Origin: an uncultured Candidatus Peribacteria bacterium
GTDB taxonomy: Bacteria > Patescibacteriota > Gracilibacteria > UBA1369 > UBA12470
Reading direction: 5' to 3'
DNA: 43,532 nt
Assembly: GCA_964603905.1 (NCBI GenBank)
Contig: CAZRWH010000006.1
Coordinates: 3,224 to 46,755, forward strand
How positions within the stretch are numbered: position 1 is the stretch's first letter; the number at the start of each line of letters is the position of its first letter. The position numbers were made by a program, and so were the translations under genes. The notes below the pieces were generated by a model. The model had not been told where the DNA came from and searched no databases. It saw nothing but the letters and a program-made list of their open reading frames with translations. Below, in pieces: positions 107 through 42,666 of this stretch.

Positions 107-141
107 CCATCTGCCATCTGCCATTTGCTATTTGCCATCTA
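107..141. repeat. heptamer tandem array: CCATCTG x2, CCATTTG, CTATTTG, CCATCTA
   Basis: Five phase-locked 7-nt units read directly. The array overlaps the stop codon (139-141) of the M16 peptidase gene. Confidence 0.85.
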
Positions 142-1374
142 AACCTCCACATTCCCAATCACCGCAACTCTAAGATTCTCAGGTGCCAGCAGCTTCTCCG
201 CAACTCGACGAACATCTTGCGCTGTAACAGCCTCAATCCCCTCCAAAACAGCATCAACATCACGAATTTCTCCATAAAGAAGCTCGTATTTTGCAAGTAA
301 ATGAGCCATTTCTTCACTATCTTCTAATTTCAAAATAATCTTGCCCTTCATATAAGCTTTTGCCTTTTCAAGCTCCTTTTCTGGCACATCTTCAGTACGA
401 ATCTTCTCGTATTCCGCTTTGATCGCATCAACCGCCTCAGAGACACGTTTTGCATCAACCCCAGCTCCTGTTGAGAGGGTTCCACAATCGGTATAATTGT
501 CTGTCGACGTCCTAATATAATAACAAAGCCCGCGCTCCTCACGCACCGACATAAACATTCGAGAACTCATATTTCCTCCAAGAATCACAGAAAGCACTTT
601 CTCCGCATAGCTATCCTCGTGCATTTCAGGAACACCACGAACACCAACGACAAGATGAACTTGTTCTGTCTTCTTTTTGTGGATTTTCTTGGTGTTTTTG
701 GCCAAATCTGGATCAAAAGGATTGTACTCCAAGCTCTGCTTCGCTTCTCCAAATTTAAACTTCTCCTCAACCAATCTCACCGCATCCTCGTGCTCAATAT
801 TTCCAACAACCGCAACTACACAATTGTCCGCTGTGTATAGCGCCTCTTTATATTTTTTAAAGTCCTCATGCGTCACATTTTTGATAAGCTCCTTGGTTCC
901 AATTTGATCCCACCCCATAGGCTGATCTCCGAAAACAAGCTGCTCAAAATCCCAACCAATTTGGTACATCGGCGTATCTTGATACATGTTGTACTCCTCA
1001 AGAATCACACCTCTCTCTTTTTCGATCTCTTTTGAATCAAATTTTGCATTCAGCATCATATCCGAAAGAACATCCGCAGCAACTTCAGCTTTTTCAGAGG
1101 CAACTTTTACAAAATATCCCGCATACTCCTTACCTGTAAAAGCGTTAAAAACACCTCCAACACCATCAATAGCCTCAGAAACCTCACGCGCATTTTTGTA
1201 AGTGTCAGCACCCTTGAAGAACATATGCTCCAAAAAGTGTGAAATACCTCTAAGTTCTTGGTTTTCATAACGACTTCCGGCACCACAAAGCACCAAAATC
1301 GTAACCGCTTTTGTGCCTTCCATTTTCCCCGTTACAACTCGCAGACCACTTTCCAATTGTGTTTTTTTATACAT
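139..1374 (-). CDS. M16 (pitrilysin/insulinase) family zinc metallopeptidase
   Basis: HFLEH (HxxEH) zinc motif near the N-terminus and typical M16 length. The ATG at 1374 (MYKKTQLESGLRVV) is preferred; the ORF track extends to a GTG at 1404. Confidence 0.85.
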   Translation of the reverse strand: MYKKTQLESGLRVVTGKMEGTKAVTILVLCGAGSRYENQELRGISHFLEHMFFKGADTYKNAREVSEAIDGVGGVFNAFTGKEYAGYFVKVASEKAEVAADVLSDMMLNAKFDSKEIEKERGVILEEYNMYQDTPMYQIGWDFEQLVFGDQPMGWDQIGTKELIKNVTHEDFKKYKEALYTADNCVVAVVGNIEHEDAVRLVEEKFKFGEAKQSLEYNPFDPDLAKNTKKIHKKKTEQVHLVVGVRGVPEMHEDSYAEKVLSVILGGNMSSRMFMSVREERGLCYYIRTSTDNYTDCGTLSTGAGVDAKRVSEAVDAIKAEYEKIRTEDVPEKELEKAKAYMKGKIILKLEDSEEMAHLLAKYELLYGEIRDVDAVLEGIEAVTAQDVRRVAEKLLAPENLRVAVIGNVEV

Positions 1375-1431
1375 AAAATTTGTTTTTAAATTTGCAAAAA
1401 ACACCTTAGCAGAAAAACCTAATAGAAACTA

Positions 1432-4020
1432 TTACATCTCGGCGAGAATATCTTTGGCTATAGCAGTCCAGGCACTAATAACATCAGCCCTACTTAAACC
1501 AGCGCCTTCAAGCACCTTAAGTCCATCCGCAGAAAGAATTTGTTTATCTTTATCAGCAAAGCAAACACCCTCATCCGAACAACGAATCTTCTCGCTCAGA
1601 GCATTTTGCAGGCCATCTTTTCCAAGCTCAACCATGCCAGGAATCACCTCCCTTGCTAAAGTTGCCTGCTGAAGAGGTGTAAGTCTGCCCAGCCTACCAT
1701 CATTTGCATATTCATAAGATAGTCCCAAAACATTTGTACTTCTCAAATTAGGCAATTTAGCCAGAGCTGAAATACCTTCAACTCCATGTTGTTCAATACG
1801 CTTACAATTAGAAATTCTAATAGTCTCTAGCGTAGGAGACATTTCCAACCCTTTTATACTTCTCAAATCATCAATTCCAACAAAAACAACCTCTTTTATA
1901 TTAGGAAAAGCAAACACTCTAGGTTCAGAATTAAGATTTCCAACTTTAAAAAACCTCAAATAAGTAATCTTTTCAGCGAACTCAGGATTGCCAGACAGGC
2001 TTTTGTATAGAAGATGATATTGCTCATTCGAATTAATACTCAATCCAATACCCTCTGCAGAAATTTCAATCTGCATAGGATCCAAAACCTCCCGAAGTTC
2101 TTCAGGTAAAGACTCATGAATTTCCTCCTGCTGTACCGTGATAGCATCCTTACCAGTATCTCCAGGCACCTCTTCCACTTCAGGCTCTTCTGTCGGCGGC
2201 CTCATCGGAAGCGGAGGAACTGGAGGTGGAACTGGCGTAGGTGCTGGAGTTGGCTCAGGAGCCGGTGCAGGCTCAGGAATCCCTTTGGCTTCACGCCATG
2301 CTTTATTGAGGTCATCAATCAAACTTTCTTGCGTCACATCATCACCAAATCTTTCCTGAATATCTCCTTTACGAACAACAGACTCAACTCTTTTCCAGCT
2401 TTTCTTAAACACAACACCTTTATTGCTACCAAACGTTAAAACCCCAAATGGCTCATCATAATACGAAGTTTCTTTAGATGAAAACTCTTGGATTGTATCT
2501 GTAACAAAACGCAATCTAGCAGCTTGATGTTCAGCATTCTCTCGAAGAGATAATTTTTGAACTTCTTCCCTCCATTTAGAATTCATAGCCTCTTCTATCT
2601 TCTTACCATGATCCAAATCCGAAAACTTCCTAAGTTCATCATCACTGCCCCAGTCAGCAAATCTAAGCCATCCATCTTCTAAATCTAGCTTGAAAGGAGC
2701 TTTCTCATGACCTTTCTCAACATCATTTTGCTCAATATTAGCCAAATATTTAGTAACTGTACTTCCAATAAACAACCTTTCTTGATGCGAGAATCCACTC
2801 AAATCAGCCTGTTCAACCTCGCCACTAATTTTCCTAAGCTTGTCTTCTGGTTCTCCATCACCAAAATCCAAATCATTATACCCAAGAAGAGAATACAAAT
2901 ATTTCTTATTCTTAGAACCTACTCGCCTAGCCGCTCCTTTCGCAGGATCATATGGAGCATCCGCAACTCTTGTAAAAGTATTTTTCTTCCTGTTAAACCT
3001 CCAACCATATTGAATAAACAAACCTTCATGCTCTAAAGAACCATCTGCCATTTCAGTAAACTTTTGATCAATCAAAATTTTCCTATTTAGTGCATCACGA
3101 ACCGTAAGTTCTTGCCCTTCAATATATTCAAGATTCCATTTAGAAGCTCCTTCAGGAGTAGTTATCCAGCTGCTTTTATACTCCTCTTTGACATTCCCAT
3201 CAGCATCCGCAATTCCAACCGCAATAGCTTTTTCTTTTGAAATCGTAGAACCAATCGGCAAATTCTTAGCACCTTCAAGATCTTCAATATCAGCATCCAT
3301 AACAGGTGCAAGAACCTCGCCACCAAAACTTTCCCCAGGCTGGTCAGAAACATGCCAACCACCACCTTGAGTCGTATCCAAAGAATTATACCAATCCAAA
3401 GAGCTCGCATATTCACGCGAAAGCTGATCCCAATTTTGGGCAACAGCTCCAAGGTCAAAAACCTCTTCAGGATAAATAAAATTCGGATCCTTATCCGCAC
3501 CACGCGCATCATTAATCATCTTGATAATCGCAAAAGTAAGCTTAGGTTGTTCAACCCAACTCAGATTAAATTCTCTACAAACAATCATCGAAAGCGTATC
3601 CCCAGCTTGCACAGTGTATTTACCAAGACCAGTAGGCGCAGCAGGCAACTGGCCAGGTGTAGCCGAAGGCGCAGAACCAGGAGCACTACCAGAAAGCTGA
3701 CTCCTCAAAGAGTTAAGCTTTTGTGTAAGTTCAGTAGCCTTAGCCTCAACATTTTCTTTTGTAAATTCTTCCAAAATCACCAAAATCTCACCCCTCATCT
3801 GTCCAGCCAAAGCGGCGTCAACACCATCCAAGTTTTCACTCAGGAACGTATTTAACTCTTGAAATTGAGCAGTAGTCATCTTAACCGCATCATCAATCTT
3901 AACCTCTTGATTCACGCTTTCATCAAGACTATCAACATCATTCAACTTAACCAAAACCTCTTCTTCGCTCACGTTAGGAACATCTGCCCCTCCACCAACG
4001 CCCATTCCTTGAGTACTCAT
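1432..4020 (-). CDS. large hypothetical protein (862 aa) with a LysM-like segment, Pro-rich spacer and C-terminal Cys-containing LRR-like domain
   Basis: Hydrophilic N-terminus with no signal peptide. YTVQAGDTLSMI...IYPEEVFDL is LysM-like (nt ~3451-3621). PEPAPAPEPTPAPTPVPPPVPPLP lies at nt ~2169-2280. ITYLRFFKVGNL / IKEVVFVGIDDLRSIKGL / LETIRISNCKRI lie at nt ~1696-2133. Confidence 0.8.
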   Translation of the reverse strand: MSTQGMGVGGGADVPNVSEEEVLVKLNDVDSLDESVNQEVKIDDAVKMTTAQFQELNTFLSENLDGVDAALAGQMRGEILVILEEFTKENVEAKATELTQKLNSLRSQLSGSAPGSAPSATPGQLPAAPTGLGKYTVQAGDTLSMIVCREFNLSWVEQPKLTFAIIKMINDARGADKDPNFIYPEEVFDLGAVAQNWDQLSREYASSLDWYNSLDTTQGGGWHVSDQPGESFGGEVLAPVMDADIEDLEGAKNLPIGSTISKEKAIAVGIADADGNVKEEYKSSWITTPEGASKWNLEYIEGQELTVRDALNRKILIDQKFTEMADGSLEHEGLFIQYGWRFNRKKNTFTRVADAPYDPAKGAARRVGSKNKKYLYSLLGYNDLDFGDGEPEDKLRKISGEVEQADLSGFSHQERLFIGSTVTKYLANIEQNDVEKGHEKAPFKLDLEDGWLRFADWGSDDELRKFSDLDHGKKIEEAMNSKWREEVQKLSLRENAEHQAARLRFVTDTIQEFSSKETSYYDEPFGVLTFGSNKGVVFKKSWKRVESVVRKGDIQERFGDDVTQESLIDDLNKAWREAKGIPEPAPAPEPTPAPTPVPPPVPPLPMRPPTEEPEVEEVPGDTGKDAITVQQEEIHESLPEELREVLDPMQIEISAEGIGLSINSNEQYHLLYKSLSGNPEFAEKITYLRFFKVGNLNSEPRVFAFPNIKEVVFVGIDDLRSIKGLEMSPTLETIRISNCKRIEQHGVEGISALAKLPNLRSTNVLGLSYEYANDGRLGRLTPLQQATLAREVIPGMVELGKDGLQNALSEKIRCSDEGVCFADKDKQILSADGLKVLEGAGLSRADVISAWTAIAKDILAEM

Positions 4021-4036
4021 ATTTGAAAAAATTAAA

Positions 4037-4467: not shown

Positions 4468-4488
4468 GCGACTTGCGACCCGCGACTA
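4468..4488. repeat. heptamer array GCGACTT GCGACCC GCGACTA in the PBP 5' leader
   Basis: Three phase-locked GCGACNN units ending 10 nt before the ATG at 4499. Confidence 0.6.
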
Positions 4489-6773: not shown

Positions 6774-6874
6774 GGAGCGAAGGAGCATTTTCAAGAAATA
6801 AAGAGATTTTTTGAGATAGCAAACAAATCGAGTTATTTCACAGAAAATGAAGCTGGCCCCTATTGAAGATAAAT

Positions 6875-6902
6875 AGATGGCAGATGACAGATCATAGAGA
6901 CG
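6875..6902. repeat. heptamer array AGATGGC AGATGAC AGATCAT AGAGACG
   Basis: Four phase-locked units. This is the reverse complement of the CATCTGN family seen at 107 and 24941. Confidence 0.75.
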
Positions 6903-6915: not shown

Positions 6916-6977
6916 AATTTTGGCGATAGGCGCGAGAACGTGTCTCGACTAGTGAAGAAGCCTATCGCCCAAAATTT
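6916..6977 (-). other. long imperfect hairpin 10 nt past the stop of the 853-aa gene, with the GTCTCGACTAG motif in its loop
   Basis: AATTTTGGCGATAGGC pairs with GCCTATCGC(C)CAAAATT (16 bp, 1-nt bulge). The 28-nt loop is gcgagaacgtGTCTCGACTAGtgaagaa. Confidence 0.6.
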
Positions 6978-9608: not shown

Positions 9609-9781
9609 GCGTGCCGGATCAAAAAAACACTACAACACCATGAAATTCAAAAAAGTCGCGTTTTGTCCCGGGACATTTCGCGACAATTCACTGTTTTATT
9701 GCATAATCTGCACGTCGAAAAAACACGTCTCGACTAGCGCAAGAGCCGTTTTGCCCTCGGGCAAAACACCATCCCAAAAAC

Positions 9782-10265: not shown

Positions 10266-13200
10266 TTATTCACCTGGGACTTCGTCAGTACTATTTTCCA
10301 TCCATCCAGTAGCACCATCCGGCATACTCAATTCTGCATGATCATGCTCCGGTTCAACACCTTCTACCGGAACCTCGTCAGTTCCAGAAGCAACAGGAGG
10401 TGGCGCCAAATCAGGAGTTTTCACTGGTGGAAGATCTTCAATTCGAGTAGTCCCAACCGGCTCAGGAAGTTCTAAATCATCTTCGGTCACCTCTTCTGGT
10501 TCTGGTTCAGGAAGGTCTAGATCGTCTGCCTCAACCTTTGTCAAAACCTCTTCTTGTTCAGCAACCTCAAGATTTGGAACTTTTCCTTCAAACGCCATTG
10601 CTTGACCATTGCTTGCTATAACACTCTTCAGGTTTGGCCATCTATCACGCAAAGAAATAATGTCACCGTCAGGGACCTGTGTACCTGCGACGTTAAGCTC
10701 TTCAAGCAAAGGACAGTTATAAAGAGAAGTCATATCAACAAGATCTGGCGAATCACTCAGGTCCGCTTTTTTCAATCCAGAACAGTTCCTCAAAGACCCA
10801 ACATCTTTCACTCCAGAAAGATCTATCTCAGAAACATGAGCCGCGGTTTCAACAAAACCTGTAAGATACACACTCAACATTTCCCATTTCATGTTATCTG
10901 TAGCAGTTACTCTATAGGTACCATCTTCCAAAAGCTCTATGTTTTTCATGCCAACAACTTTTTCAATAAGGGAGATTGCACTTTTATCAATTCTAGGATC
11001 TGTCTTTTCTCTTTCAGAAATTGCAAACCCTCCATGATCCTCAATTTGCTCAGGAGTTTTTCCAACACTAGCAAGTGAAGGATTTACCTCCAACATATCT
11101 GTTCTCTCCGTAGCACCAATATCCAAATCGTGAAAATCCGGAACTTCAGGACCTTGCTTCTCAATTTGCAAAGAATTAATGCCAGTAGGATCAGTATCTT
11201 CAAGGACTTCCCAATCAGTGTCGATAACATCATCCATTTCAATTTGAGGAACAGGTCTAGCAGGCAAAAGATTGTATCCTTCTAAAACAGTATCATTAGC
11301 ATGATATTCATCTTTAAATCCAAACCGAACAATATCACTAGTAAAAGCTCCATTATTCTCGACAACAACACGCCTCAACAACGTAAATGTTCTCAAAACC
11401 TCCTTAACAAACTCCTCTTCAGACGCCAACTCTTCTCCTAAATAAACCTCAGTCACATAAGTCATAGATTGAAACAACTCTTTCTGACGAGCACGATACT
11501 CCGTCATAAATGTTTGCATTTGATCTTTATTCCTAAACACAATTCCAAGCTGCGACTCCGCAACCTCAATAATATCTTCGACAGAGTCAGCAATCGAAGC
11601 CGGAATACCATATTTGTCTTCCAAAACTTTGGTGTCAACTGATCCAAACCCATTAACAACCTCTTGTTGCTGTTCAAAGGTTTTACCAGGGTCTGTAACT
11701 TCTTCTTTATCTTGTTTTTCTTCGGGCTCTGGATAAACCTCTGGCGCCTCTTTAGGATCAAAAGTAGACGGATCACCTATCCTATTAATTTCAGGGTTTG
11801 GTGCTTTTTGTTCAGCAACTTCTTCCTCGGCAGGGGTGTCTTCAGTTCCAAGATTAACAGGATCTGGAGCATCAGCAACATCCAAAGGAACAGTTGGTTC
11901 AGACACAATATCAGAAACCGGCTGTGTAGACTCAACAATCGATTCCCCAGAAATACTTTCTGGGTCAATAGTTGGCTCAGAAGGCACCTCATCAGCACCA
12001 CCCAGTTGCGCTTGAAGTTCAGAAACATCAAAAATCGCTGTATCTCCACCATGAGTAGGAGGAGCAGAACCGACACCCAAAGATTGCGACATTGCAGATT
12101 TAGCACCTTCACTACTGCTAGAAGAGTAAGGGATATATCCAGCGAATATTTTTCGCCCACTATCCTCTTCAAACAAATGACCACCCGCCCCATTCAAAAG
12201 CAAAGGATAATCAACACGGAAAACCGCACCTTCAGCCCCCTGAGGAGAAGAAATACCTTCAACCTCAACATCTGAAGCTCCTTTCTCAAACTGTTCAGGC
12301 AAATCACCTTCAAGAGTGTCATACAAAGCAACATGCCTATACTCATATCCTAACTCTGCCGCCATTTTGGTAAACGTTTCAATATAACTATCTCCCTCGA
12401 CAACAGTTCTATTTATCTTGTCAGCCAAAGGTGGAAGCTCATTAGGCATCGCCTCTCTAACTATTTGCATAAATGGAGCAATTTTATATCCAAAAACTCT
12501 CAAAAGATTTCTCTTGAAAGTATTTACAACCTCTTCGGTTTTTTCTGGAGAAATATATCTACCACCACCTACAAATTCACCACTCCTAGAAATATTAAGC
12601 TCTGCTGCAGAATGCTCACGTATTCCTTTTAGTAGCACACTTAAAGCATTCGCTGCCTCACCAGAAAGAGGCATAAGTTCATGACCAGGATCATTACGAT
12701 GCTCAATCACAAAACCAATAAAACTCAACGCTTGTACCATCTCCTCAAAAGCTGCCTCGGCGCCGTTAGTTAATTGCTCAAGAAGCTCACCATAGACCGC
12801 CCAATCAACATATGGATCAAGTCCTTTCTGGCTTTCAACTGCAACAATATTTTTAGAAAGAGTAACCGCCTTATCAATATGAGTAAAATAATCAATAAGA
12901 AACGGCGAATCAATAATAGCCTTCAAAGCTTCTCGAACCTCAACATTAACAACACACGCCTCTAGAACCCCTGCATCATCCGGAAGCAACGACTCACGAA
13001 CATTCTTCGGCAATGTAAATTCATCTCCAGCTCTCTCCGGCATTTCAAGTGCAGTAGCAGACAAATTCAAAACCCAAGAATCATCCTGGTCAGGCTCTCC
13101 ATCAACAAGCTCCATCGGCTCACCGGTAAGAGCCTCATGTTCTCTTACAGCAGCTTCAACAGGCCCAATTTGCACAGGAACAAGCTCTTCAAGCAAAGGC

Positions 13201-16200
13201 TCTTGTTTAACATCTTCAGTAGTTTCTAAAACAGGTTCTTCCGGTTTCTCGGCAAACTCAGGAGCACCATCAAATTCACGCAACACCGGAGGTGGACCTG
13301 GATCGACTTGAGCTGGGTTTTCCGCAGAAACAGACCCTGAAATTGGTTCTAAGTCAAATTCAGAATGTTCTGCCTCATCTGCCACCTGCTCACTGCCATC
13401 TGTTATCTCTTCAACCTCCCCAAACGGCACAATCTTTTTGCCTAAAGGAATAAATTCTGCCCTGCCTGGATAAGGTGACGTTTTTTCTTTATCAATAAGA
13501 TGGAACACTGGACGTGCAACACGAACAATGAGAGGTCTTGCTTCGTACTCTGTATCTACATCCTCGAGAGGAAGCGCAGGAAGCCTCAATTCTCTTATTC
13601 CAATTACTTTCTCATCACGCAATTCATAGTCAAAAGCATCAGCAACATACAAAGGGATATGTTCATATTTCCCATTTAATTTCATAGAAACATTATTAAC
13701 CAAATCCCTAATACCACCAGAGAACTCAGAATGAATATCCTTGTCGTTAACCTTTAAATCCCCACATCTTGCCTCTACTTCCCCAGATAAAACAGGTACC
13801 TCGTTAGGCAAAGCTTCAACTACAAATTGAAGAGATCTGACTATAGGACAAACTACATGATTAAGAAGCATATCCATTTTGTTTCCCATTTGCCTTTGAA
13901 TCGCTTCAGGCCCCGTGCCGAAATTGTATTTAGGCTCAAACAACAAATGCTTTAATCGCAAAGCCTCGGACTCAGAAAAAGACATTTCCTCAAGGTTTTC
14001 ACTAGTAGCAAATTTTCTCAAAACATCAAAACGCAAAAGAGCATTGTAAGCACCTTTATTATAATCTTCCCACATCTCACGATACTCAGGACTAACATCA
14101 GCTTGTTTCAACAATTCATTACTATCTAATACAGCCTGCATCGTACGCTTCTCAAGAGCAGCTAATTCAGGCGAACCAACAAACTCACGATAGAATTCGA
14201 CGACAGGTCCAAAATTCTCAAAAGTATTTTTTACACTAGCAATCACATCCGGATATTCAGAAAGAGGCTTTCTTTCCCCTTCATCTATACCCAACTGCTG
14301 CGCTAAAGAATTAATATCAAAGCTTTGAGTCTCTTCAACCTGCTCACTGTCATCTGTCATCTGTGATCTGTCATCTTCTGCCGCCGTCTCTGCTCCTTGC
14401 TGACTACTGACTACTGACTCTACCGCCGCCCCACTGTCCACTGTCCTCTGTCCACTGTCCTCTGTAACCCTCTCCAACTCCGCCCTAGCCTCAGCTTCAG
14501 CAATACGAATATTCTCCCTCTCTATTGTAGTATCAATCCAATCAACAACTTGATCCCTACCTTCAAGATTCTTTTCTGGAGAACCTTCAAAAATAACTCT
14601 TCTAAGATTTGGAATGTATCTTAACTTATGAGCAATTGTAGTAATATTAAAATCAAAAACTTCGCCAGACAACTTGACCGATTTCAAACGCCTACGGAGC
14701 TCTTCATTCTCATCAATCAAAGCTCTGAACGAATAACTATGCGTAAAAATTGCATAATCGTCCAGGGTCAACTCTATGCCATCTCCCTCTTCTTCTTTTT
14801 CGAACTTCCAGCCCCTGTCACTGATTTCAGAGAGGAGAGTGTCTTCCCCCAAAAACTCCTTAACCTTTTCTTCACCCCTCAAGCTTTCTTTCGCCTTTCC
14901 AGGATAAGTTATCTTCCTCAAATTTTTCGCCCCTCTAAGAGCATCACGAACAACTTCAGGTTTTTCAATAAGAGCAGCAGGCAACATAACCTCATTCAAA
15001 GCCTCAGCAACCTCAGGACGCTTCAACTCTTCCTTAAGAACAGCAAGTTGATCCTCATCACCGATCCAAACATCAATAGCCTTGCCCTCAGCCTGCTCTT
15101 GAATGTTTTCAAACTTACCTTCAAGACTTTTTGCAACAGAAACTACATCGACAGACTCAACATCTTTCTCAGTTGGTTTCTCCACATCGTCCAACTCAGG
15201 ACCAACAGGCCCAGGTCCAACTGGAGGCACACCTCCGTCATCTATATATGGGTCCGTTGAATCTTGTTCATCGTCTAAATCGTCAGAGTCGCCATAAAGG
15301 AATTCATGTAATTTATCGCTAACATCAAAAACCTCCACCCATCTTCCATCCTTCCTAAATCCAATCCTCTGTAAATTAACCGCCTTTTTAAGAACCTCTT
15401 TCAATCTTGGTAAATCCGTAAACTCTTCATCAAGGGAAATATACCCCAGTACATTTGCAACATCAGGGTCATTCAATTCCTCCTCCAGCAAGTCAATTTG
15501 AGACTCATAAGCTCCAAGTATCGCAATATAATCACCAGGCTCATTATCCACAATCATAGCCCCCTGAAACTTGCCCGAAAGTCTATTTTTTATAGCCAGT
15601 TTTTTCTCGTGAAAAAGATCCTCCTCAGAATCAACCGGAGGAGACCCACCAAGAACTATAACTACAGGGTTCAAAAATCTTTCAACAGCCTCCCTATCTT
15701 CATAATATTCCTTATTAGGCAAATACAAACCTTCTAAATTCTTTGCTTTTTTTAGTATTCTTATAAGCTTTTGTTTCTGCTCAAAATCAAACTCGTCCTT
15801 AATCCCAATTTGATACAATACCTTAACAACATCAGGGTCATTAAGCTCTTCATCTAAAATATCAAGCTGGTCTGGACCTAAATTCATATAAATCATATTT
15901 TTTTCTCGGTCTGTAGGATGACCGACCATCATAGCCCCATCAAACTTTTTCGAAAACCTCATTCTTATAGCCTGACAATCGTCGTAAGGAAGACCAGACT
16001 CAATAGCAGGATCTTCAATCTCCCCAATCGGAGCTACTTTGAGATCAGATGGTTGTTCCGCATCTGCTCCTTGCTCTCTGCTCTCTGCCATCTCTTCCAC
16101 CGCCCCACTGTCCACTGTCCCCTGTTCACTACCCACTGTCCCCCCCGAAGGCCCAACAGGCTCACTTGCATCAGCAGGTCCATCAATCGGCTCCAAGTTA

Positions 16201-19200
16201 AATTCGGACACCTCTTCTGACGCTTCCGCCGCCTCACTGTCATCTGTCATCTGTTCTCTGTCATCTGCTTCCGCCTCATCTGCCGCCCCACTGCCCACTG
16301 TTCTCTGTCCACTGTCCACTGCCCTCCTCGAAGGCCCAACAGGCTCACTTGCATCAGCAGGCCCAGAAGTCGGTTCTAAATTAATTTCAGATACCTCTTC
16401 CGACGCTTCCACATCACTGTCATCTGTCATCTGTTCACTGCCATCTACTGACTCCCCGCTTTCAGTCGCACTGTCATCTTCTGCCGCCTCTTCTGCCGCC
16501 CCACTGTCATCTGTCCCCTGTTCACTATCCACTATCCCCCCAGACGGCCCAACAGGCTCACCGCCATCACCAGGTCCATCAATCGGATCTAAACCAAAGT
16601 CATCTTTCGGCAAATCCACACCTCCCCAGTCCCATTCAGTCCAAGGAGTTGGACCAACAGTAGGCTCAGACAATTCATACGCAGCCTCCATATCTATAGG
16701 TTTTCCGTCAGGACCAAGAATGTTTCCATACCTATCAACATCAGGAAGCTGAGAACGCTCTCCATCACGTTGCGCTTTCTCAAGAGCAACCGGACTATAA
16801 GCAACTATAGGAGGAGCAATGAAAGCATCATGAGTACCCTCTTTTTCAATTAAATAAGAAGCTTGAGGACAATCAGCAGGTTCCGTTGGAACATTAAACA
16901 AATGCTGTGGCTGACCATCTTCCCAGTCGGCGATATAATCTCCAGGATTTACAACATCGTCACTGCCAGGGATAACAAGTTTATCAAGACTTCCATCTCC
17001 TTTTATCATCGCAAGTGAACTCAACATATTATCAGGCCCACGTTGAGCACACATTATGTATTCTCCAAGGAACTTCGGCTTAGCACCAGAAGTGCCCCAA
17101 AGAAGTTTTCCAACATCACTACTGAATGTAGCCTCTCCACTAGAATCAATCGTAAACGGTAGATGACGAACAACACCACTACCATCTTTCACAGCAGCAT
17201 ATAGAGCAATTTCACCTTTATTAAAGGCAGCTGCAACATCAAGTCCAGGGCCACCAACAGTTTGAGTAGGTTGACCTGCACCTTGTTTCAGCATCTCTTT
17301 GATACTCAAAACCACATTACCACTAGGATCAACGCCATCAGTTCCTCCGAACCATAGTCGTTGTTCTTGAACAAGCTCAACACCTTCACCAGAAACATCA
17401 GGAGTTCCATTGTGCCAGTGATCTCCAAGTTTTTCTTCTACAAATCCAAGGCCGCTCCATTGAGAAGGAGTCATACTTCCAGTAGATACTGTAGTCAGTG
17501 TTGGAACAGTTGTGTATCCGCTACCGGTAGTAGCAACTGTAATACCTTGCGATCTCAAATAAGTTTCAGCATTGCTAGAGAAAACACCCGGACTGTCATA
17601 CCAATAAGAGTCAGGTGAAACATGCCCCACTGGAATAAGTCCACGTCCTTCTAAATAAGTAATCAAAGACTCAGCATCCGCAACATAACTTCCTGCAAGA
17701 ATTCCGTTATTAACAATCGAACAGTTATCAATCAACCATTGTTGAGTAACAGGACCTGGATCAGGTGCATCAGACGGCATTTGAATAAGAACAGGCCTTC
17801 CATCCACCATAACCGTTTTATCAATAATCGGTCCTGTATAAACATCAACCTCAGTACACCCTCCATAACCAATCGGATCACCAACATCAAAACCTTCAGC
17901 TGTAAGATAATCCAGAGAAGGCTGAGTCAAAAGACCGTTATTTCCATAAACAATCCTGCTCGGATCAAGACCATTATCAACAGCAAATTGATTGATCGCA
18001 TTAACCGATCCAACATTAACCGAGACATCTTGTCCAAAAGGACCAAACATCATATTTCCAAGCTTACTAACTCCAAAGAAAGCGCTACTAGTCACACCTC
18101 CGAAAAGCGCACCGATCGAAGCAGCTTTTGCGTTTTCTTTGAACTTAAGCCATTTAAAATCTTTTCTTTTACCTGTAATCATCGCCTCAAGATCTTCACG
18201 AATCGTATCAAGCTTACCAACAAGATCAGCATCAACGTTTCGATCACCAGCATTTTGCTCTAACCAATCACGTCCACGACGAGCTGCAGCAAGAAGAGCT
18301 GTTCTATCACGCTCGACATGTTTGGCGTCGCTGAACGAAATCAAATCGATCCTTCCTCCACCTCTCTCAGGCCTCTCTTCAAAACTCATAGTATTTCTAA
18401 TCTCAATCTCAGCAACCATTCGTACAACAGCCTCGTAATCATTACTTTCGATAGCGTTCTCCATCGAACTAAGAAGCGCAACCGCACTCTCCTTCTCCGA
18501 AGTAACTTCAGAAAGTTTTTTCTGCCAAGTTCCATCTGGAGCTTGAACATAATATCCAAGAGCTTCACGTCTGTTTTGTTGAGCCTCTTGCATAATGACA
18601 GCACGATCTCTGTGCTTACCAGCAAGCAAACCTCCAGCGATAATACCACCAGCAGCGGCAGCAATTGCAGGAGCAGCAGCAGGCGCTACCAAAAGACCAA
18701 GCGCACCACCGATTGCAGCACGACCAGCCATACTAGAACCAACGTTATAAAGTCCGTTCATAACACCATACATACCGATAGAAACTGCTGTCGGCGACAT
18801 AGCCCATTTCAAAGGAGGATATTTCGCACCCCACTTTTGAATTCTAGAAACAGCCTTGTCCGCCCAAGTCCTATCCTCCGCAGACGAGTGAACATCAACA
18901 TTCATCGCCTTTCCGATTTTTAGAGTTAATCTAAAATTATCTAAATCAATATTTGCAACACCTCGCACATGCTTCAGGCGAAGATCTTTCATTCTTTCAG
19001 CAACATCTGTCGCCAAAGTTTCATCACCTTCAGGATCTCCAATATGTTCTCTACGAATCTCATTAATCATTCGAGTCGCACGCCTTTTGAAATCCTCATC
19101 AGTAACAGTTCCAACAAGATACTGCCTAGCAAGATCATCAAGTTGTTCCATATGCATAGTTCCTTCTAGCTCAGCAATCATCTCGTCTGGTGTAACATCA

Positions 19201-24840: not shown

Positions 24841-24850
24841 TTTATTTTTA

Positions 24851-24878: not shown

Positions 24879-24940
24879 GCATTATCTTTCAAGTATCAAG
24901 CATGAAAAATAAAAAACCACACCATCCTCTACCCTCTATT

Positions 24941-24989
24941 ATCTAATATCTGTCATCTGTCATCTGTCATCTAAAATCTGTCATCTAAC
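24941..24989. repeat. heptamer array ATCTAAT (ATCTGTC)x3 ATCTAAA ATCTGTC ATCTAAC
   Basis: Seven phase-locked units overlapping the stop codon (24985-24987) of the 231-aa lipoprotein gene. Confidence 0.9.
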
Positions 24990-25680: not shown

Positions 25681-25682
25681 GG

Positions 25683-25898: not shown

Positions 25899-25969
25899 AA
25901 ATGGTTATTTTAAAAACTAGGACCTAATCGTAACAAAGCAAAAAGCACCCAACAAGCAAAAACACCATG

Positions 25970-25998
25970 ACTACAACTACCACTACTCACTACAACTA
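25970..25998. repeat. ACTACN hexamer/heptamer repeat (actacaactaccactactcactacaactag)
   Basis: CTAC recurs at 6-7-nt spacing. The repeat overlaps the rpmG stop codon. It closely resembles the poly-Thr-coding tract at 35728-35755. Confidence 0.6.
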
Positions 25999-26169: not shown

Positions 26170-26291
26170 AATTATTTTTAGATTAAAATTAAACTGTTTA
26201 GCGCATATCTTCTATCTGATAAACAGCTTTTTGTCAAAGGTAAACTTGGAAAATCACCCTTTTCAGCATAAACTTGGAACATACAAATTCC

Positions 26292-26310
26292 GTTTTCGCA
26301 TCACGAAAAC
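26292..26310. other. 7-bp hairpin GTTTTCG-CATCA-CGAAAAC preceding a heptamer array
   Basis: Perfect stem read directly. It is followed by AAAACACCATC and then heptamers. Confidence 0.5.
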
Positions 26311-26315
26311 ACCAT

Positions 26316-26350
26316 CACTGCTCTCTGCTGACTGCTGATTGCTGACTAAC
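26316..26350. repeat. heptamer array CACTGCT CTCTGCT GACTGCT GATTGCT GACTAAC
   Basis: Five phase-locked units ending 10 nt before the ATG at 26361. The first 17 nt are identical to 42587-42603. Confidence 0.85.
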
Positions 26351-28823: not shown

Positions 28824-30320
28824 ATGGCACCAAACAAACCAGGGGGGAAACCGGACGGACACACTCGCATGGGAACAACAAAAATGGCAGGCAGAGACCT
28901 TAATGACGCAACTCAAGCACTTGATGAAGCAGACTCACTAGAAGCTGCATGGGCATCATTAATGAACGACGGCGAAACACCCAACACACCTGTACACAAC
29001 CCACGCGCGCCAAAAGATTTTGGTTTTGTAGGTGAAGAAAACAACACACCAGCAATCCAAAGCGGAGCCGACTTAATCTCACACGCAGCCCAAGAAGGAA
29101 CTACCCGACTAGAAACTGGAGATCTAGAGATGAGAAACGCCAACGAAACACTTTTAGCAAAACTCAACAAGCTTAGAGGTCCTGGACAAATTTTCGAAGA
29201 CGTGAGCGACGAAGGTATCGAGTTAATTTCAAAATTCGCAAGAACAACCGACATTTTCGAAGGAGATGTCGTAATTGGAACTGAAAAAACCTTCCAAGAT
29301 GCTGCACTCAGAGAAACCGGAATGGCCATTATTTTGAGTGACCAATTCAATATTGAAACACCAAGAGGAAACCTTCCAATAAAACAAGGTAGAACGCTTG
29401 GAGAACGAGGATTCCGTGGAGAAGAACGAGCAAACGAAGTAAAAGCAAAAACACCAGGAACGCTAATGCTGATAGATTCGAACCTCAAAGGACTTAGGTC
29501 TATGGGATTATCTATTGAAGACTCAAACGCAATTCGCCTTAACATCCTTAGAAACAGCTACCTAGAAAGCGCAAACAACAACTTGAGTTTCGTAGACCCT
29601 AGATTCAAGCCAGTTCTAGCAAGAGCATTGCAACCCCTGACAAGAATTCTTCAAGACGAAATTCTCACAACCAACGAACAACGCAGAAGACAGCTAGTCG
29701 ACCCCAAAAGACTTCCACATAGCAAATTAGTACCGAGAGAAGACAAGTACGAAGCACTTATAGTCTTAGATGGAAACTACCAAGGCCCTATTGTACAAGT
29801 TAGAAACAACGAATCAGGGGAAATAATCAGCGAAATCCTAGCACCTACAGTTCTATTCATTCTTAGGGCAGCAGGAATGCCAGTTGATCAGCTTTCTGCA
29901 CAACTTTTTGTAGAGCAAAAATTCTTCGCAACACCAGTAGAAGTAAGAGGATCAGACAGACCAGCAGACGAACAAGAAAAAGTTATCGAGATTCTGGAAA
30001 CAATCGAAAACACCCTTCTGAGCATAACAAATAAAACCTATGACGGATGGCTAAAAGAGCGAGAACTACGCAGAGCAGAAAGAGCGGTAGGTCAACAACC
30101 TAGGAGAAAAAAGAAGCCTGCAAAAAAGAAACCAGAAGCCCCAGAAAGCAAAGGGTTAGTCCAATCATTCGTTGATGACCAACGCGCACAAGCGCAAGAA
30201 CTTGTTGAATCTGCCAATAAAGGAACAATGTCATCGTGGCTTAGAACACAATGGGAAAGGTCTACAATCAAAGCAGCAATCAAGGCAATCGACGACTCAG
30301 ATAAACCGAGACGGAGATAG
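28824..30320 (+). CDS. hypothetical protein (498 aa) with cNMP-binding-like signature and a Lys/Arg-rich tail
   Basis: GERGFRGEERANEVKAKTPGTLMLI parallels CRP [20 protein letters not shown] (nt ~29181-29498). The C-terminus contains PRRKKKPAKKKPE. The gap from the upstream gene is 11 nt. Confidence 0.45.
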   Translation: MAPNKPGGKPDGHTRMGTTKMAGRDLNDATQALDEADSLEAAWASLMNDGETPNTPVHNPRAPKDFGFVGEENNTPAIQSGADLISHAAQEGTTRLETGDLEMRNANETLLAKLNKLRGPGQIFEDVSDEGIELISKFARTTDIFEGDVVIGTEKTFQDAALRETGMAIILSDQFNIETPRGNLPIKQGRTLGERGFRGEERANEVKAKTPGTLMLIDSNLKGLRSMGLSIEDSNAIRLNILRNSYLESANNNLSFVDPRFKPVLARALQPLTRILQDEILTTNEQRRRQLVDPKRLPHSKLVPREDKYEALIVLDGNYQGPIVQVRNNESGEIISEILAPTVLFILRAAGMPVDQLSAQLFVEQKFFATPVEVRGSDRPADEQEKVIEILETIENTLLSITNKTYDGWLKERELRRAERAVGQQPRRKKKPAKKKPEAPESKGLVQSFVDDQRAQAQELVESANKGTMSSWLRTQWERSTIKAAIKAIDDSDKPRRR

Positions 30321-30359
30321 TGTTAGTGAACAGTGGACAGTGGGCAGTGAACAGTGGAT
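30318..30359. repeat. heptamer array TAGTGTT AGTGAAC AGTGGAC AGTGGGC AGTGAAC AGTGGAT
   Basis: Six phase-locked units starting on the TAG stop of the 498-aa gene. This is the reverse complement of the CACTGTY family. Confidence 0.9.
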
Positions 30360-30480
30360 TCTTGGTGTACGATTTTTGCATACTAAAAATTTCCACCGCA
30401 GGAGGCTTCTTAATTACAAGCCACGAACTAACCTGCTCGTTTATACTCGCTTGCGGGTGGAGAGCTCCATCCTTACGTTA

Positions 30481-34913: not shown

Positions 34914-34966
34914 TTATGCAGATACATACTACTTAGTCCGCCCTACTTATCAAGATTTTTTCCTTA

Positions 34967-35548: not shown

Positions 35549-36319
35549 ATGAAGAAAATTCTCATCCCAATACTAATCCTAGCCATCCTGGCCATACCAG
35601 CCACATACTTTGGCAAAAAAGTCATAAGAGACTATCAATACAGCGTCACGCATTCAACTTTAGAGCCAATCACCCTGGAAACAGAGCCTTCTGCAAATAA
35701 CAGTTTTCCTAAGGAAAACACCATAACTACAACCACCACTACTACTACCACTGAAGAAATCAATTTAAAAATTGATTTCTTCTCCCAGGCCCCATACGCC
35801 GACTGGTCAATGCCATACCAAGAAGCTTGTGAGGAAGCCAGCCTGATCCTCGCATACAATTTCGTCCAGGGGATCACGATGAACAAGGAGGAGTTCCACA
35901 TCGAACTTCTCAAGATGATAGATTGGGAGACCGCACATTTTGGCTCATACGAGCACACGACGGTTGATGAAACAGCTGAGATGCTTGATGATTTTTATGA
36001 TTTTCAAAACTACAAAATTCTCACAGATCCAAGCATCGACAACCTCAAAAACGAGCTAGCATCCGGAAATCCAATCGTTGCACCATTTGCAGGACGAGAG
36101 CTTGGGAACCCCAACTTTACAGGAGAAGGGCCGTACTACCACATGCTTGTAATCCGCGGATACGACGAAGAATATTTCATCACAAACGACGTTGGCACCC
36201 GCCTTGGCGAGAACTACCAATACACTCATGACGTACTAATGAACGCACTTCATGACTGGCACGATACCGATATTTCTACAGAAGGAGAGAAAAAAGTTTT
36301 AGTCCTCCTTGGATCCTAA
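35549..36319 (+). CDS. membrane-anchored C39-like (papain-fold) cysteine peptidase domain protein
   Basis: N-terminal TM helix and a T9 run. FFSQAPY...YQEACEEASLILAY is the candidate catalytic Cys. YHMLVIRGYDEEYFITNDVG holds the candidate His and Asn/Asp. Confidence 0.5.
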   Translation: MKKILIPILILAILAIPATYFGKKVIRDYQYSVTHSTLEPITLETEPSANNSFPKENTITTTTTTTTTEEINLKIDFFSQAPYADWSMPYQEACEEASLILAYNFVQGITMNKEEFHIELLKMIDWETAHFGSYEHTTVDETAEMLDDFYDFQNYKILTDPSIDNLKNELASGNPIVAPFAGRELGNPNFTGEGPYYHMLVIRGYDEEYFITNDVGTRLGENYQYTHDVLMNALHDWHDTDISTEGEKKVLVLLGS

Positions 36320-36678: not shown

Positions 36679-36707
36679 TTGACTAATCGCAAACAAACAT
36701 ATAGAAT
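36679..36707 (+). promoter_or_regulatory. sigma70-type promoter, TTGACT-N17-TAGAAT
   Basis: TTGACTaatcgcaaacaaacataTAGAAT. The -10 box lies 27 nt from the ATG at 36735. Confidence 0.6.
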
Positions 36708-39629: not shown

Positions 39630-39711
39630 GTTATTTTGATTTAAATTCAGGACGCAACCATACTATTTTTAGGCGCAAAGATAAAGGCTAAAACCGCAAC
39701 TACACACCAAT

Positions 39712-39774
39712 CACTAATCACTGTTCACTGTTCACTGTTCACTGTTCACTGTTCACTGTCCACTGTTCGCTATC
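39712..39774. repeat. heptamer array CACTAAT (CACTGTT)x5 CACTGTC CACTGTT CGCTATC
   Basis: Nine phase-locked units. The murJ stop codon (39753-39755) and last 6-7 codons lie inside the array. Confidence 0.92.
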
Positions 39775-41142: not shown

Positions 41143-41171
41143 TTGACCAGAAGAGCCTTTTCTGTTATAAT
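41143..41171 (+). promoter_or_regulatory. consensus sigma70 promoter, TTGACC-N17-TATAAT
   Basis: TTGACCagaagagccttttctgtTATAAT. The -10 box lies 26 nt from the ATG at 41198. Confidence 0.7.
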
Positions 41172-41197: not shown

Positions 41198-41791
41198 ATG
41201 AAAAACAAAAAATTAACAACACTCATAATTGCTACAGCAATATTAGCAAATGCAATTCTTCTAGGGCTAGCAAACGCTGAAGACACAACTTCTCAAGTTG
41301 AAATTATAGGAGGAAGCGTAACAATGGAAGTTCCTGCGTCTCTAAATTTCGACTCAATAAGCACAAGTGCTGCCGACCAAATAATAGCTGCAGACGGAAC
41401 AGAAAATTCATTCTTCATCGAAGACCTTACGTCAGATGGATCAACGTGGGACATTGATATTGCAATTGCAGGACCGTTCATAAACCATTCAACAGGGACT
41501 ACGATTCCTCTCGGAATCCTAAACTCAAGGGTTAGACTCGACTTCGACCGTGACGATATAAGCTGGTCAGACCTTGGAACATCTTCAGGTTGTGGCTCAG
41601 CAGGAATTACCCTACTAGGAACACTCGGAAGGGTTGGCCTTCACACCACTGCAAATGTAGATGCAATAGAAGCAGACTCAACACGACGAGCAGTAAAATG
41701 TGGCCTAACACCTAGCCTGGACATGAAAATTCCAGGAGGAACTGCTGCCGGAACATACCAATCAACTCTTGTGTTCACTCTCACAACTTAA
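41198..41791 (+). CDS. secreted WxL-domain-like beta-rich protein (197 aa)
   Basis: Signal peptide ...LANA/ED. SVTMEVPASLNFDSI, FFIEDLTSDGSTWDIDIAIAG and IPGGTAAGTYQSTLVFTLTT parallel the three conserved WxL-domain blocks, with W replaced by F. Confidence 0.5.
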   Translation: MKNKKLTTLIIATAILANAILLGLANAEDTTSQVEIIGGSVTMEVPASLNFDSISTSAADQIIAADGTENSFFIEDLTSDGSTWDIDIAIAGPFINHSTGTTIPLGILNSRVRLDFDRDDISWSDLGTSSGCGSAGITLLGTLGRVGLHTTANVDAIEADSTRRAVKCGLTPSLDMKIPGGTAAGTYQSTLVFTLTT

Positions 41792-41913: not shown

Positions 41914-42522
41914 ATGAAAAACAAAAAACTTACAGCAATCGTAGTTGCTGCTGCTCTTGTAGCAAACGTAGTTCTTTTCGGTCTTGCTTCTGCTGACGAT
42001 ACTACTTCTCAAGTACAAATCACAGGTGGAACTGTCACTATCGACGTGTTCCCAACAATGAACTTCTCAGACATTGACACAAGTGCTGCAGACCAACTTA
42101 TCACTTCAACAGGAGGACCTAGCTCTTTCCAAGTTGAAGACCTTACATCAGACGGATCAACATGGGACGTCACACTAGAAATCGCAGGTAGCTTCCTTGA
42201 TTGGAGCACTGGACGTACTATAGTACTAGGAGAAGATGGTGTAGATCTAAGATATGACCTAGACAAAGACGAAGCTGACTGGGCTGACCTAGACGATACT
42301 CCAACTGGAAACTGTCTTGAAGCCACTAGCGGAATGGCAATCGAAGGTCTTGAAGGAGGAATATTCTTCCACGATACAAACCCACAAACAATTATCACAG
42401 CAGACACTACTCCTAGAGCAATAAACTGTGGTATCACACCTATCCTTGAAATCAACGTACCTGGTGGAACTCTATCTGGAACATACCACAACACTTTGAC
42501 TTTCACTCTTACAACATACTAA
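41914..42522 (+). CDS. secreted WxL-domain-like beta-rich protein (202 aa), tandem paralogue
   Basis: Signal peptide ...ASA/DD. TVTIDVFPTMNFSDI, FQVEDLTSDGSTWDVTLEIAG and VPGGTLSGTYHNTLTFTLTTY align with the upstream gene. Confidence 0.5.
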   Translation: MKNKKLTAIVVAAALVANVVLFGLASADDTTSQVQITGGTVTIDVFPTMNFSDIDTSAADQLITSTGGPSSFQVEDLTSDGSTWDVTLEIAGSFLDWSTGRTIVLGEDGVDLRYDLDKDEADWADLDDTPTGNCLEATSGMAIEGLEGGIFFHDTNPQTIITADTTPRAINCGITPILEINVPGGTLSGTYHNTLTFTLTTY

Positions 42523-42546
42523 GCACGTAATATCAAATACTTAAAA

Positions 42547-42574
42547 GGCACCTCTCTCGCGGGGTGTCTTTTTT
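42547..42574 (+). terminator. intrinsic terminator
   Basis: GGCACC...GGTGTC stem followed by TTTTTT. AAAA precedes the stem, so it may act in both directions. Confidence 0.7.
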
Positions 42575-42589
42575 ATAAAAAATTCCCAT

Positions 42590-42666
42590 CACTGCTCTCT
42601 GCTCCTTGCTAACTGCTGACTAAAACCATCACTACTGACTACTGACTCATTCCTACTAACTAAAAA
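42590..42666. repeat. composite heptamer array CACTGCT CTCTGCT CCTTGCT AACTGCT GACTAAA ACCATCA CTACTGA CTACTGA CTCATTC CTACTAA CTAAAAA
   Basis: Eleven phase-locked units. CTCTGCTCCTTGCT and ACTACTGACTACTGACTC recur verbatim inside the giant ORF at 14388-14422. Confidence 0.85.

Follow-up and report, generated by a model that had tools for sequence, protein, structure and literature searches.

Heptanucleotide tandem repeats adjoining an intergenic hairpin element in a Candidatus Peribacteria genome

The stretch of DNA analysed here, 43,532 nt from an uncultured Candidatus Peribacteria bacterium of the groundwater type (assembly GCA_964603905.1, contig CAZRWH010000006.1, positions 3,224 to 46,755; hereafter 'the window'), carries a family of tandem repeats with a unit of 7 nt, which we refer to as heptamer arrays. 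The homologues of its MurJ and glutaredoxin (Grx)/CcdA-like proteins and the related contigs belong to Candidatus Peregrinibacteria/Peribacteria, within the candidate phyla radiation (CPR). The coding fraction of the window is 90%. Outside one giant gene there are ten arrays, each of them located between genes or across a gene end; the other 24 genes have none in their interior. The units fall into four families: CAGATGR, RACAGTG, GCAGWSA and AGTAGTC. Genome fragments of relatives, used for comparison, are designated by L numbers.

The period-7 signal was quantified by a period scan of our own (at least three copies with at least 85% match, runs of 1–3 nt excluded), with 30 dinucleotide shuffles as the null. 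It detected 12 period-7 arrays in the window versus 0.23 expected, an excess of about 50-fold. The same scan found no array at period 5 or at periods 8–13 and a single one at period 6; two matches at period 14 are multiples of 7. Tandem Repeats Finder (TRF), proposed by a first-pass annotation of the window, makes period-7 calls at 107–140, 22129–22147, 24924–24988, 26317–26347, 30325–30358, 39718–39768 and 42631–42647, plus a cluster in the giant gene. Most of the ten arrays listed by that annotation were recovered; two of its entries, 4468–4488 and 25970–25998, are weak. The autocorrelation of intergenic DNA has peaks at lags 7, 14 and 21 (0.31 versus a baseline of about 0.27); coding DNA of the window shows period 3 alone. 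The same intergenic peaks occur in L130 and are missing from the array-free relative L133.

An assembly artefact, the concern raised in the first-pass annotation, is rejected, since the arrays are reproduced identically in independent assemblies. The Logan contig L001 has 100% identity to the window over 23417–25983, one array included, and the arrays of relatives recur identically across independent NCBI, JGI and ENA assemblies.

Six arrays had been placed on stop codons, and reading of the sequence bears out all of them. A full module, detected by the scans, by reading and by hairpin search, lies 3′ of the M16 peptidase gene (84–141, minus strand). The array overlaps the stop codon TAG (141–139) and runs TAGATGG CAAATAG CAAATGG CAGATGG CAGATGG; it is followed by the pentamer TGGAG, which we call the anchor, by the hairpin GTTTTGC-ttt-GCAAAAC (86–102) and then by GCTTTTATTT. 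At 22126–22163 (minus strand) the units GATGGTG GTTGGTG ATTAGTG GATAGTG GACAGTG span the stop codon TAG (22145–22147) of a 332-aa gene. The array at the stop codon TAG (24985–24987) of a 231-aa gene (24911–24989, minus strand) was found by TRF and by reading and is the one contained in the Logan contig. Its units TAGATGA CAGATTT TAGATGA CAGATGA (three times) ... TAGAGGA are followed by the anchor TGGTGTGG and a T-run, and it takes up most of the 102-nt spacer preceding the next gene. At the rpmG stop codon TAG (25996–25998) the feature extends over 25958–25998 (minus strand); here mixed units of 6 and 7 nt (TAGTTG TAGTGAG TAGTGG TAGTTG TAGTC, 25970–25998), for which TRF calls period 6, are followed by the anchor ATGGTGTTTTT. 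The array at the stop codon TAG (30318–30320) of a 498-aa gene is on the plus strand (30318–30372); its units TAGTGTT AGTGAAC AGTGGAC AGTGGGC AGTGAAC AGTGGAT (30318–30359) are followed by the TCTTGGTG anchor. The longest array, (ACAGTGA)7–9, is located at 39695–39774 (minus strand) and followed by TTGGTGTG; it provides the last 5–6 codons and the TGA stop codon (39753–39755) of MurJ.

Two arrays lie in 5′ leaders and, as noted before, each ends exactly 10 nt ahead of an ATG. One is the weak three-unit array GCGACTT GCGACCC GCGACTA (4468–4488) upstream of the ATG (4499) of the PBP gene, a marginal family member whose units have only GCGAC in common and which was detected neither by TRF nor by our own scan. 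The other (26316–26350) is part of a module beside the start of the Grx/CcdA-like gene (26291–26350, minus strand), a position shared with the species of L006 and L131. Read on the plus strand, this module consists of the hairpin CGTTTTCG-catca-CGAAAACA (26292–26310), CCAT, the C-rich array CACTGCT CTCTGCT GACTGCT GATTGCT GACTAAC, 10 nt and the ATG at 26361.

The remaining intergenic arrays lie between genes. TAGATGG CAGATGA CAGATCA TAGAGAC (6874–6902, plus strand, on which it is G-rich) lies 145 nt past the PBP stop codon and adjoins a 14-bp convergent hairpin (6918–6973). At 42589–42666 (minus strand), two short arrays of the AGCAGAG/AGCAGTG and AGTAGTC types, each ending in GTGATGG, are found between the convergent genes for 202-aa and 227-aa proteins, beside a canonical terminator hairpin (about 42555–42580). 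This terminator, GGCACCTCTCTCGCGGGGTGTC followed by T6 (about 42555–42585), is the sole clear canonical one near an array and lies 3′ of a pair of tandem paralogues of 197 and 202 aa (41198–41791 and 41914–42522), whose signal peptides (MKNKKLT...) are almost the same.

The giant gene is an open reading frame (ORF) of 3834 aa (10266–21770, minus strand). Nine arrays were detected in it by TRF and by our own scan between 14344 and 16539 (minus strand): 14344–14377, 14396–14422, 14429–14466, 16064–16094, 16103–16130, 16234–16262, 16287–16327, 16414–16440 and 16516–16539. Their units, GACAGTG, CAGATGA, AGTAGTC and GAGCAGA, are of the types seen outside the gene. Their G-rich strand is the sense strand, and translation gives an acidic low-complexity region. 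The gene also contains a 183-nt tandem duplication (16100–16446) which itself bears heptamer arrays. Its orthologue in L129/L130 has heptamer tracts as well, and the N-gap of the L129 scaffold falls inside such a tract. A further in-frame feature is present in the C39 peptidase gene (35702–35765, minus strand), where the hairpin GTTTTCC-taa-GGAAAAC is followed by ACCAT and a run of Thr codons (ACTACAACCACC...). All of this is part of the N-terminal linker, which exceeds that of relatives by 13–17 aa; in L006 an array occupies the corresponding place.

The arrays are associated with TAG stop codons. Among the window genes, five of eight TAG stops carry an array versus none of the 15 TAA stops (p = 0.0017), and the TAG is the first triplet of a repeat unit, such as TAGATGG beside CAGATGG. 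Overall, stop usage is 15 TAA, eight TAG and two TGA, one TGA (that of MurJ) being supplied by the array. Peregrinibacteria are akin to lineages in which UGA is reassigned; the standard code holds in the window, as its ORFs are long and uninterrupted. A role of the arrays as three-frame stops was considered and rejected as a general property: it is true of GATGACA and TTAGGGA, but GCAGTCA, GGAATGT and GCAACTT contain no stop triplet.

Repeat-derived tails had been reported for the 332-aa gene and for MurJ, with the suggestion that slippage could remodel C-termini. Both tails are real, as judged by reading the gene ends and, for MurJ, by comparison with relatives. MurJ ends in ...SLRGIANSGQ* in the window and in ...SLRGLV* in relatives, so that the terminal ...LV* has been replaced by ...IANSGQ*. 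No 3′ array was found in relatives with about 80% MurJ identity, and this array is unique to the window species.

The anchor and the hairpin had been mentioned in the first-pass annotation as side notes. They are present as described (CACCAT anchors; hairpins at 86–102 and 26292–26310), but their importance was underrated: anchor plus hairpin, rather than the heptamer units, are the most conserved part of the module across species. On the G-rich strand the module reads 5′-(heptamer)n-(R)TGGWG anchor-hairpin GTTTYSS/loop(3–5)/SSRAAAC-3′; in some copies a T-run takes the place of the hairpin after the anchor. Copies of TGGWG-GTTTYSS-loop-SSRAAAC number four in the window, six in L010, two each in L130 and L131, and one each in L011, L006 and L024. 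The inner stems vary among copies (GC, CG, CC, GCC, CGC, CGCC) without any loss of pairing. Of the four intergenic TGGWGTTTY motifs of the window, three precede a perfect 7–8-bp hairpin, and for this reason the hairpin test is not circular. The hairpin is confined to array-positive loci (8/32 versus 0/61, Fisher p = 1e-4, kinship ignored). A scan of viral contigs with the anchor 15-mer gave chance matches only, of which 0/120 were followed by a hairpin.

The module also occurs without an array. A solo anchor plus hairpin, TGGTG-GTTTTGCC-cgag-GGCAAAAC (9747–9771, minus strand), is located between the giant gene and the gene for an 853-aa protein. Immediately 3′ of it is one copy (9723–9737) of a second dispersed intergenic element, the 15-mer CTAGTCGAGACNNGT, of which two copies were found on the minus strand versus 0.01 expected. 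The other copy (6938–6952) lies in the loop of a 14-bp inverted repeat (6918–6931/6960–6973) between the convergent genes for PBP and the 853-aa protein.

Three familiar identities were considered for the hairpin; two were rejected and one, that of a promoter −10 box, found no support. A canonical Rho-independent terminator does not fit, as most hairpins have no T-run and the module also occurs antisense upstream of start codons. The only clear T-run is at the 102–86 hairpin; those of L010, L130 and L131 are followed by GGTTATAG or similar. As most hairpins are without a T-run and terminator-like sites are not enriched in the window, the earlier proposal that the arrays are spacers between stop codon and terminator fails as well. 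A promoter −10 box, suggested by ACTATAAMC on the C-rich strand and expected to start transcripts at the hairpin, has no consistent −35 element and lacks the T at position 6; the real promoters match well. Half-sites of the hairpin resemble the GTTTCAC of a parS-like site, but the spacer varies from 3 to 5 nt and the inner stem co-varies, which indicates a hairpin and not a fixed dimer operator.

A dispersed conserved hairpin family with compensatory stems and a conserved 5′ flank, TGGWG, might be a REP/MITE-like element (repetitive extragenic palindrome/miniature inverted-repeat transposable element) moved via single-stranded DNA by an HUH (Y1) transposase, the arrays being its repeated target, a guide-complementary flank or a by-product of recurrent insertion and excision. 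Elements of the IS200/IS605 type insert into the lagging-strand template, and insertion of this kind would give a bias such as the 16 of 17 hairpins found on the G-rich strand. The arrays always lie 5′ of the hairpin, and it is on this side that such elements retain their target. In addition, modules are present at non-orthologous places, in tandem clusters and in frame in a gene linker; their presence or absence is lineage-wide; an indel polymorphism separates two modules; and one relative has an IS200-like Y1 transposase. We nevertheless consider this origin unlikely. No transposase is encoded in the window or adjoins any module. The only Y1_Tnp seen in the genome fragments examined (L006, 15360–15767) is flanked by quite different hairpins, CCCCGTAGCTTGCTACGGGG. 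IS200/IS605 transposition occurs without target duplication and does not directly explain the arrays, and conservation of position across species argues for persistence over frequent movement. The L006 element as a whole (15280–15815; Y1_Tnp, E = 3e-33) has its own hairpins CCCCGTAGCTTGCTACGGG(TG) and CCCCGTAGCTTGCTGCGGGG at its ends and is inserted immediately after the rpmG array and anchor.

The polarity of arrays and hairpins was counted across loci, with relatedness ignored in the statistics. The TGGWG side is on the locally G-rich strand in 16 of 17 oriented hairpins, and array skew agrees with local skew in 27 cases versus 7. With the arrays read in G-orientation on curated gene maps of the window, L130, L002, L006 and L131, a gene boundary is found at the array 5′ end in 16 cases (nine same-strand stops and seven opposite-strand starts), as compared with two cases, both doubtful, at the hairpin end (binomial p = 0.0013). 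Arrays at start codons end 0–13 nt before the ATG of a gene on the C-rich strand. The original description, in which arrays mark gene 3′ ends with the purine-rich strand as sense strand, holds in the window; arrays of relatives, however, abut start codons, with the C-rich strand as sense, about as frequently as stop codons. The 3′-end rule dominates the window because most of its genes lie on the G-rich strand. What orientation tracks is the G-rich chromosome strand and not the gene. Plus- and minus-strand genes agree in the sign of their GC skew (window −0.07/−0.30, L130 −0.19/−0.38, L002 +0.36/+0.14); the skew therefore belongs to the chromosome strand and is such as replication gives rise to. 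With absolute values of about 0.2–0.3 in the window and four related loci, the skew is unusually large for a genome of about 42% GC. The intergenic skew of the window is −0.21, without a turning point in the window.

The words of the anchor (TGGTG/TGGAG) and of the GT-rich arrays are rich in G and T, resemble Chi of the GCTGGTGG type and lie nearly all on the G-rich strand (ATGGTG 27 versus 2 and TGATGGT 16 versus 0 between strands), with about one module per 4 kb. That they form a Chi-like, replication-oriented recombination signal is nonetheless hardly credible: no anchor word exceeds its Markov expectation, the strand bias is that of general composition skew, each genome has several unit types, and a close relative is devoid of the whole system.

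Heptamer arrays are abundant in relatives at 70–80% protein identity, where they consist of other units: GCARCTT, GGAATGT and GAGAAGT in L002, L010 and L130 (uncultured Peribacteria, GCA_964538865.1), TAGGGTR, TTAGGGA and TAGTTTG in L006 and L012 (Peregrinibacteria of the CG2_30_44_17 type), TAGGGTG and TAGTCTA in L131, and TAGCTTG in L011. Array density is 2.8–4.7 per 10 kb in the window and L010, versus 0.29 per 10 kb over 852 kb of other, more distant CPR loci, and is zero or near zero in Chloroflexota control loci. Arrays and hairpins are essentially missing from L133/L134, a close relative whose Grx protein is 78% identical; L013 represents a further array-free sister type.

Despite this turnover of units, at least three positions recur across species: the 3′ end of rpmG, the 5′ end of the Grx gene and the 3′ end of the gene for a DUF3352 protein. 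The RpmG protein ends in ...KRKDTKS* in all species examined. The window, L130 and L006 each have an array directly at the rpmG stop codon; its unit is a different one in every species, and an anchor and a T-run always follow. The rpmG 3′ end of L133 has a degenerate array (TAGATAT TAGACTC TAGAGTC TGAAGGG) and that of L077 none. The module at the Grx start is common to the window, L006 and L131, and in L131 the array touches the ATG. At the DUF3352 3′ end, L130 and L131 have TAG, array and anchor, followed by a hairpin in L130 and by a T-run in L131; no array is present there in the window. Conservation of position in relatives, which the first-pass annotation had made a test of its proposal, is therefore found at these three boundaries and not at MurJ. 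A GAGAAGT-type array also lies directly upstream of a tRNA gene in L002 (16825–16870) and L130 (19540–19590); at the same position in the window (34914–34966), where the gene is that for tRNA-Thr, only a remnant TAAGTAG...TAAGTAG is seen.

Recurrence at gene boundaries raises the question of gene expression signals. Shine–Dalgarno-like motifs are not visible upstream of any of the 25 start codons of the window, the leaders being rich in A/T or in C/A. Sigma70 promoters close to consensus (TTGACA-17-TATAAT or TAGAAT) have their ends 20–50 nt ahead of the ATG; examples are found at 9608–9580, 4419–4391, 35535–35506, 41143–41171 and 36679–36707. Canonical terminator-like sites are not enriched in the window. 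RNA of the arrays, in either sense, folds no better than shuffled sequences (z from −0.8 to +1.1); stable structure in the module comes from the hairpin alone. The Rfam scan of the window detected tRNA-Thr only and no known RNA family at the arrays.

These data allow the modules to be read as functional RNA-level elements of untranslated regions (UTRs), in two settings. Past a stop codon, an unstructured G/A/U-rich array with its hairpin or U-run would mark or stabilize the 3′ end of the mRNA, or end transcription in place of a canonical terminator. Ahead of a start codon, a 5′ hairpin with an unstructured C/U-rich leader would stabilize the mRNA and permit initiation in the absence of a Shine–Dalgarno motif. 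The arrays could, in addition, be platforms for an RNA-binding protein stepping every 7 nt. The same gene boundaries are used in several species despite unit turnover, arrays start at the stop codon without a spacer and end 0–13 nt before an ATG, and a T-run often follows the anchor. In tandem genes the module is placed between a stop codon and the sigma70-like promoter that follows, which is the usual place of a terminator. Unconventional signals are plausible where Shine–Dalgarno motifs are lacking and canonical terminators are not enriched, and unstructured arrays beside a single stable hairpin are consistent with such a role. We regard this reading as possible but are inclined to doubt it. 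The sense is opposite at 3′ and 5′ ends, which would yield G-rich RNA at the former and C-rich RNA at the latter, and orientation tracks the chromosome strand better than the gene. The units differ within a genome and between species, which is difficult to square with a protein that recognizes a specific sequence. A U-tract is missing from most hairpins, some arrays are found within coding regions, and L133/L134, in spite of the 78% identical Grx, do essentially without arrays and hairpins.

Variation between strains could be followed in the relatives. L004 and L002 share 16.3 kb and differ in two variant clusters only. One of these is a heptamer array that has gained 7 nt and many in-phase substitutions, with identical flanks. 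A 55-nt indel, situated between two hairpin modules, distinguishes L005 from L002. Strains thus vary preferentially at arrays, and the +7-nt change between L004 and L002 is polymorphism of the slippage type that had been suggested.

A change of this kind within a gene would shift the frame, and the arrays might then be contingency (phase-variation) tracts that switch C-termini or expression by slippage of plus or minus 7 nt; the array-supplied last codons of MurJ and the 332-aa protein and the array that differs by +7 nt between strains would be in line with this. Phase-variable contingency loci combine copy-number polymorphism between strains, which is seen here, with a tract inside the reading frame or promoter spacer, which is not. 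Most arrays start at or after the stop codon, so that a change in length leaves the protein unaltered, and those at 5′ ends are upstream of the ATG and outside promoter spacers. The genes concerned (rpmG, MurJ, M16 peptidase) have housekeeping and not surface or restriction functions. Phase variation is accordingly a very unlikely explanation.

The observations are best accommodated, in our view, by heptanucleotide microsatellites of the STRR (short tandemly repeated repetitive) type that sit on a lineage-specific intergenic hairpin element, perpetuate themselves chiefly at the DNA level and affect UTRs and C-termini only incidentally. We give this reading about an even chance of being correct. 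A process at the DNA level is indicated by the strand orientation, the use in either sense, the turnover of units, the variation between strains, the sister species without the system and the invasion of coding DNA. Arrays are confined to weakly constrained DNA, that is, intergenic regions, gene termini and low-complexity linkers. They may grow, shrink and homogenize through slipped-strand mispairing or unequal exchange at replication, and growth would take place on the 5′ flank of a hairpin able to fold in single-stranded DNA. In a small genome with deletion bias, the spacer between array and gene would be lost, so that arrays would end where selection on the ORF begins. As 7 is not divisible by 3 and TAG or TGA is present in many units, an array reaching the end of an ORF should give a stop codon within a few codons. 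New stops supplied in this way would explain both the association with TAG and the remodelled C-termini of MurJ and the 332-aa protein. The arrays would then not be gene-specific regulators, and stop codons and short protein tails would be side effects.

Several points weigh against this reading. No mechanism accounts for the strict 7-nt step, and this is equally true of the cyanobacterial STRR repeats. The same boundaries carry arrays in three to four species despite complete turnover of the units, which could reflect selection for an array. Abutment to the conserved rpmG stop codon at a distance of 0 nt is explained only by the assumed deletion bias. The arrays at 6874–6902 and 30318–30359 follow plus-strand genes and not the chromosome strand. 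The direction of replication is deduced from GC skew alone, there being no origin or terminus in the loci examined. Strain variation concerns just one array and one module cluster, and the phylogenetic tests take no account of relatedness.

STRR heptanucleotides were reportedly described from heterocystous cyanobacteria by Mazel et al. in 1990. To our knowledge, no origin or function has gained acceptance in the approximately 35 years since, and we know of no description of heptamer arrays in CPR bacteria. As a reference we analysed 50-kb stretches of the Nostoc sp. PCC 7120 plasmid alpha and the Nostoc punctiforme plasmid pNPUN01 with the same script. There are three period-7 arrays on the former and nine on the latter. 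No arrays were found at periods 6, 8 and 9 on either plasmid; pNPUN01 has one each at periods 5 and 10. The likeness to STRR repeats already suspected from the window sequence is borne out in detail. On pNPUN01, arrays begin exactly on stop codons (1555–1590, 43824–43855), as in the window, form the last codons of ORFs (961–994, 1962–2001) and reach to within 4 nt of the next ATG. Abutment to stops and starts, a striking feature of the window, is therefore a general property of STRR-type arrays. In both groups, 7-nt units in about 3–10 copies are dispersed over many, mainly intergenic loci; each genome has few unit families, which are common to its loci and differ between species; and many units contain CAG or TAG. 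Units of this kind from Peregrinibacteria and Nostoc include CAGATGG, ACAGTGA, GCAGTCA, TAGGGTA, TAGCTTG, AGTCAGG, GGCAGGA, TTATCAG and GCAGAAG. Some are close to identical in different phyla: GCAGAAG is common to Nostoc and L020, and TCAGTCA of Nostoc resembles GCAGTCA of the window. This likeness could be due to chance or to a shared mechanistic constraint.

Four differences are evident. The arrays described here belong to a CPR bacterium, whose genome is small and 90% coding, and not to a heterocystous cyanobacterium. The module of anchor and hairpin was not seen beside the Nostoc arrays. The polarity here follows a single chromosome strand, whereas Nostoc arrays often form inverted pairs, and the density is 2.8 per 10 kb in the window versus 0.6–1.8 on the Nostoc plasmids. 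Inverted array pairs in Nostoc punctiforme are found at 961–1088, 44819–44884 and 46626–46819 of L256; this arrangement is absent from the window. Some Peregrinibacteria also have inverted array pairs around a short spacer (L028 8412–8620, L029 4885–4968, L033 3907–4005). Such pairs, in Nostoc as in Peregrinibacteria, would form long hairpins.

Other repeat families have parts of the module in common. Elhai et al. (2008) reportedly found small dispersed repeats often embedded in the heptamer tandem repeats of cyanobacteria, and the hairpin described here has the same association with heptamer tracts. REP elements and their clusters (BIMEs, bacterial interspersed mosaic elements) of the REP-RAYT (REP-associated tyrosine transposase) system are likewise short dispersed intergenic hairpins that are flanked on one side by a conserved motif, vary in their stems in a compensatory manner, form tandem clusters and are limited to certain lineages. 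In contrast to these, the modules described here have no cognate transposase that we could find and their hairpins are single and not inverted pairs, while enterobacterial REPs lack a heptamer array. MIRUs (mycobacterial interspersed repetitive units) are intergenic tandem repeats of mycobacteria whose ends coincide with neighbouring stop or start codons, and Rickettsia palindromic elements (RPEs) are small repeats that insert in frame into coding regions. The former resemble the arrays in their ends at stop and start codons and the latter in their in-frame copies, as in the giant gene and the C39 linker. However, their units are 40–150 nt long and not 7, and they have neither a 7-nt periodicity nor a module of hairpin and anchor.

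Finally, hairpin and heptamers together might constitute an undescribed, active and replication-oriented system. In one version, a hairpin would be propagated through single-stranded DNA, and its enzyme or replication intermediate would carry out templated addition of 7-nt units. In the other, the module would be a selected boundary element that sets the 3′ end where a gene is on the leading strand and the 5′ leader where it is on the lagging strand, in genomes without Shine–Dalgarno motifs and with few terminators. We hold the two versions, taken jointly, to be doubtful. If true, either would provide a mechanistic handle on the function of the cyanobacterial STRR repeats.

That a streamlined CPR lineage unrelated to cyanobacteria shows STRR-like behaviour speaks for a general mechanism and not for a cyanobacterial peculiarity. 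The lineage is a second one in which STRR repeats can be studied, and it contributes the conserved anchor and hairpin, polarity along one chromosome strand, and sister species of which some have the system and others lack it. Comparison of the genomes of these sister species could seek the responsible factor, such as a repair, replication or transposase gene. In practical terms, the arrays cause breaks in assemblies and errors of gene callers at start and stop codons, and they change the ends of proteins in metagenome-assembled CPR genomes.

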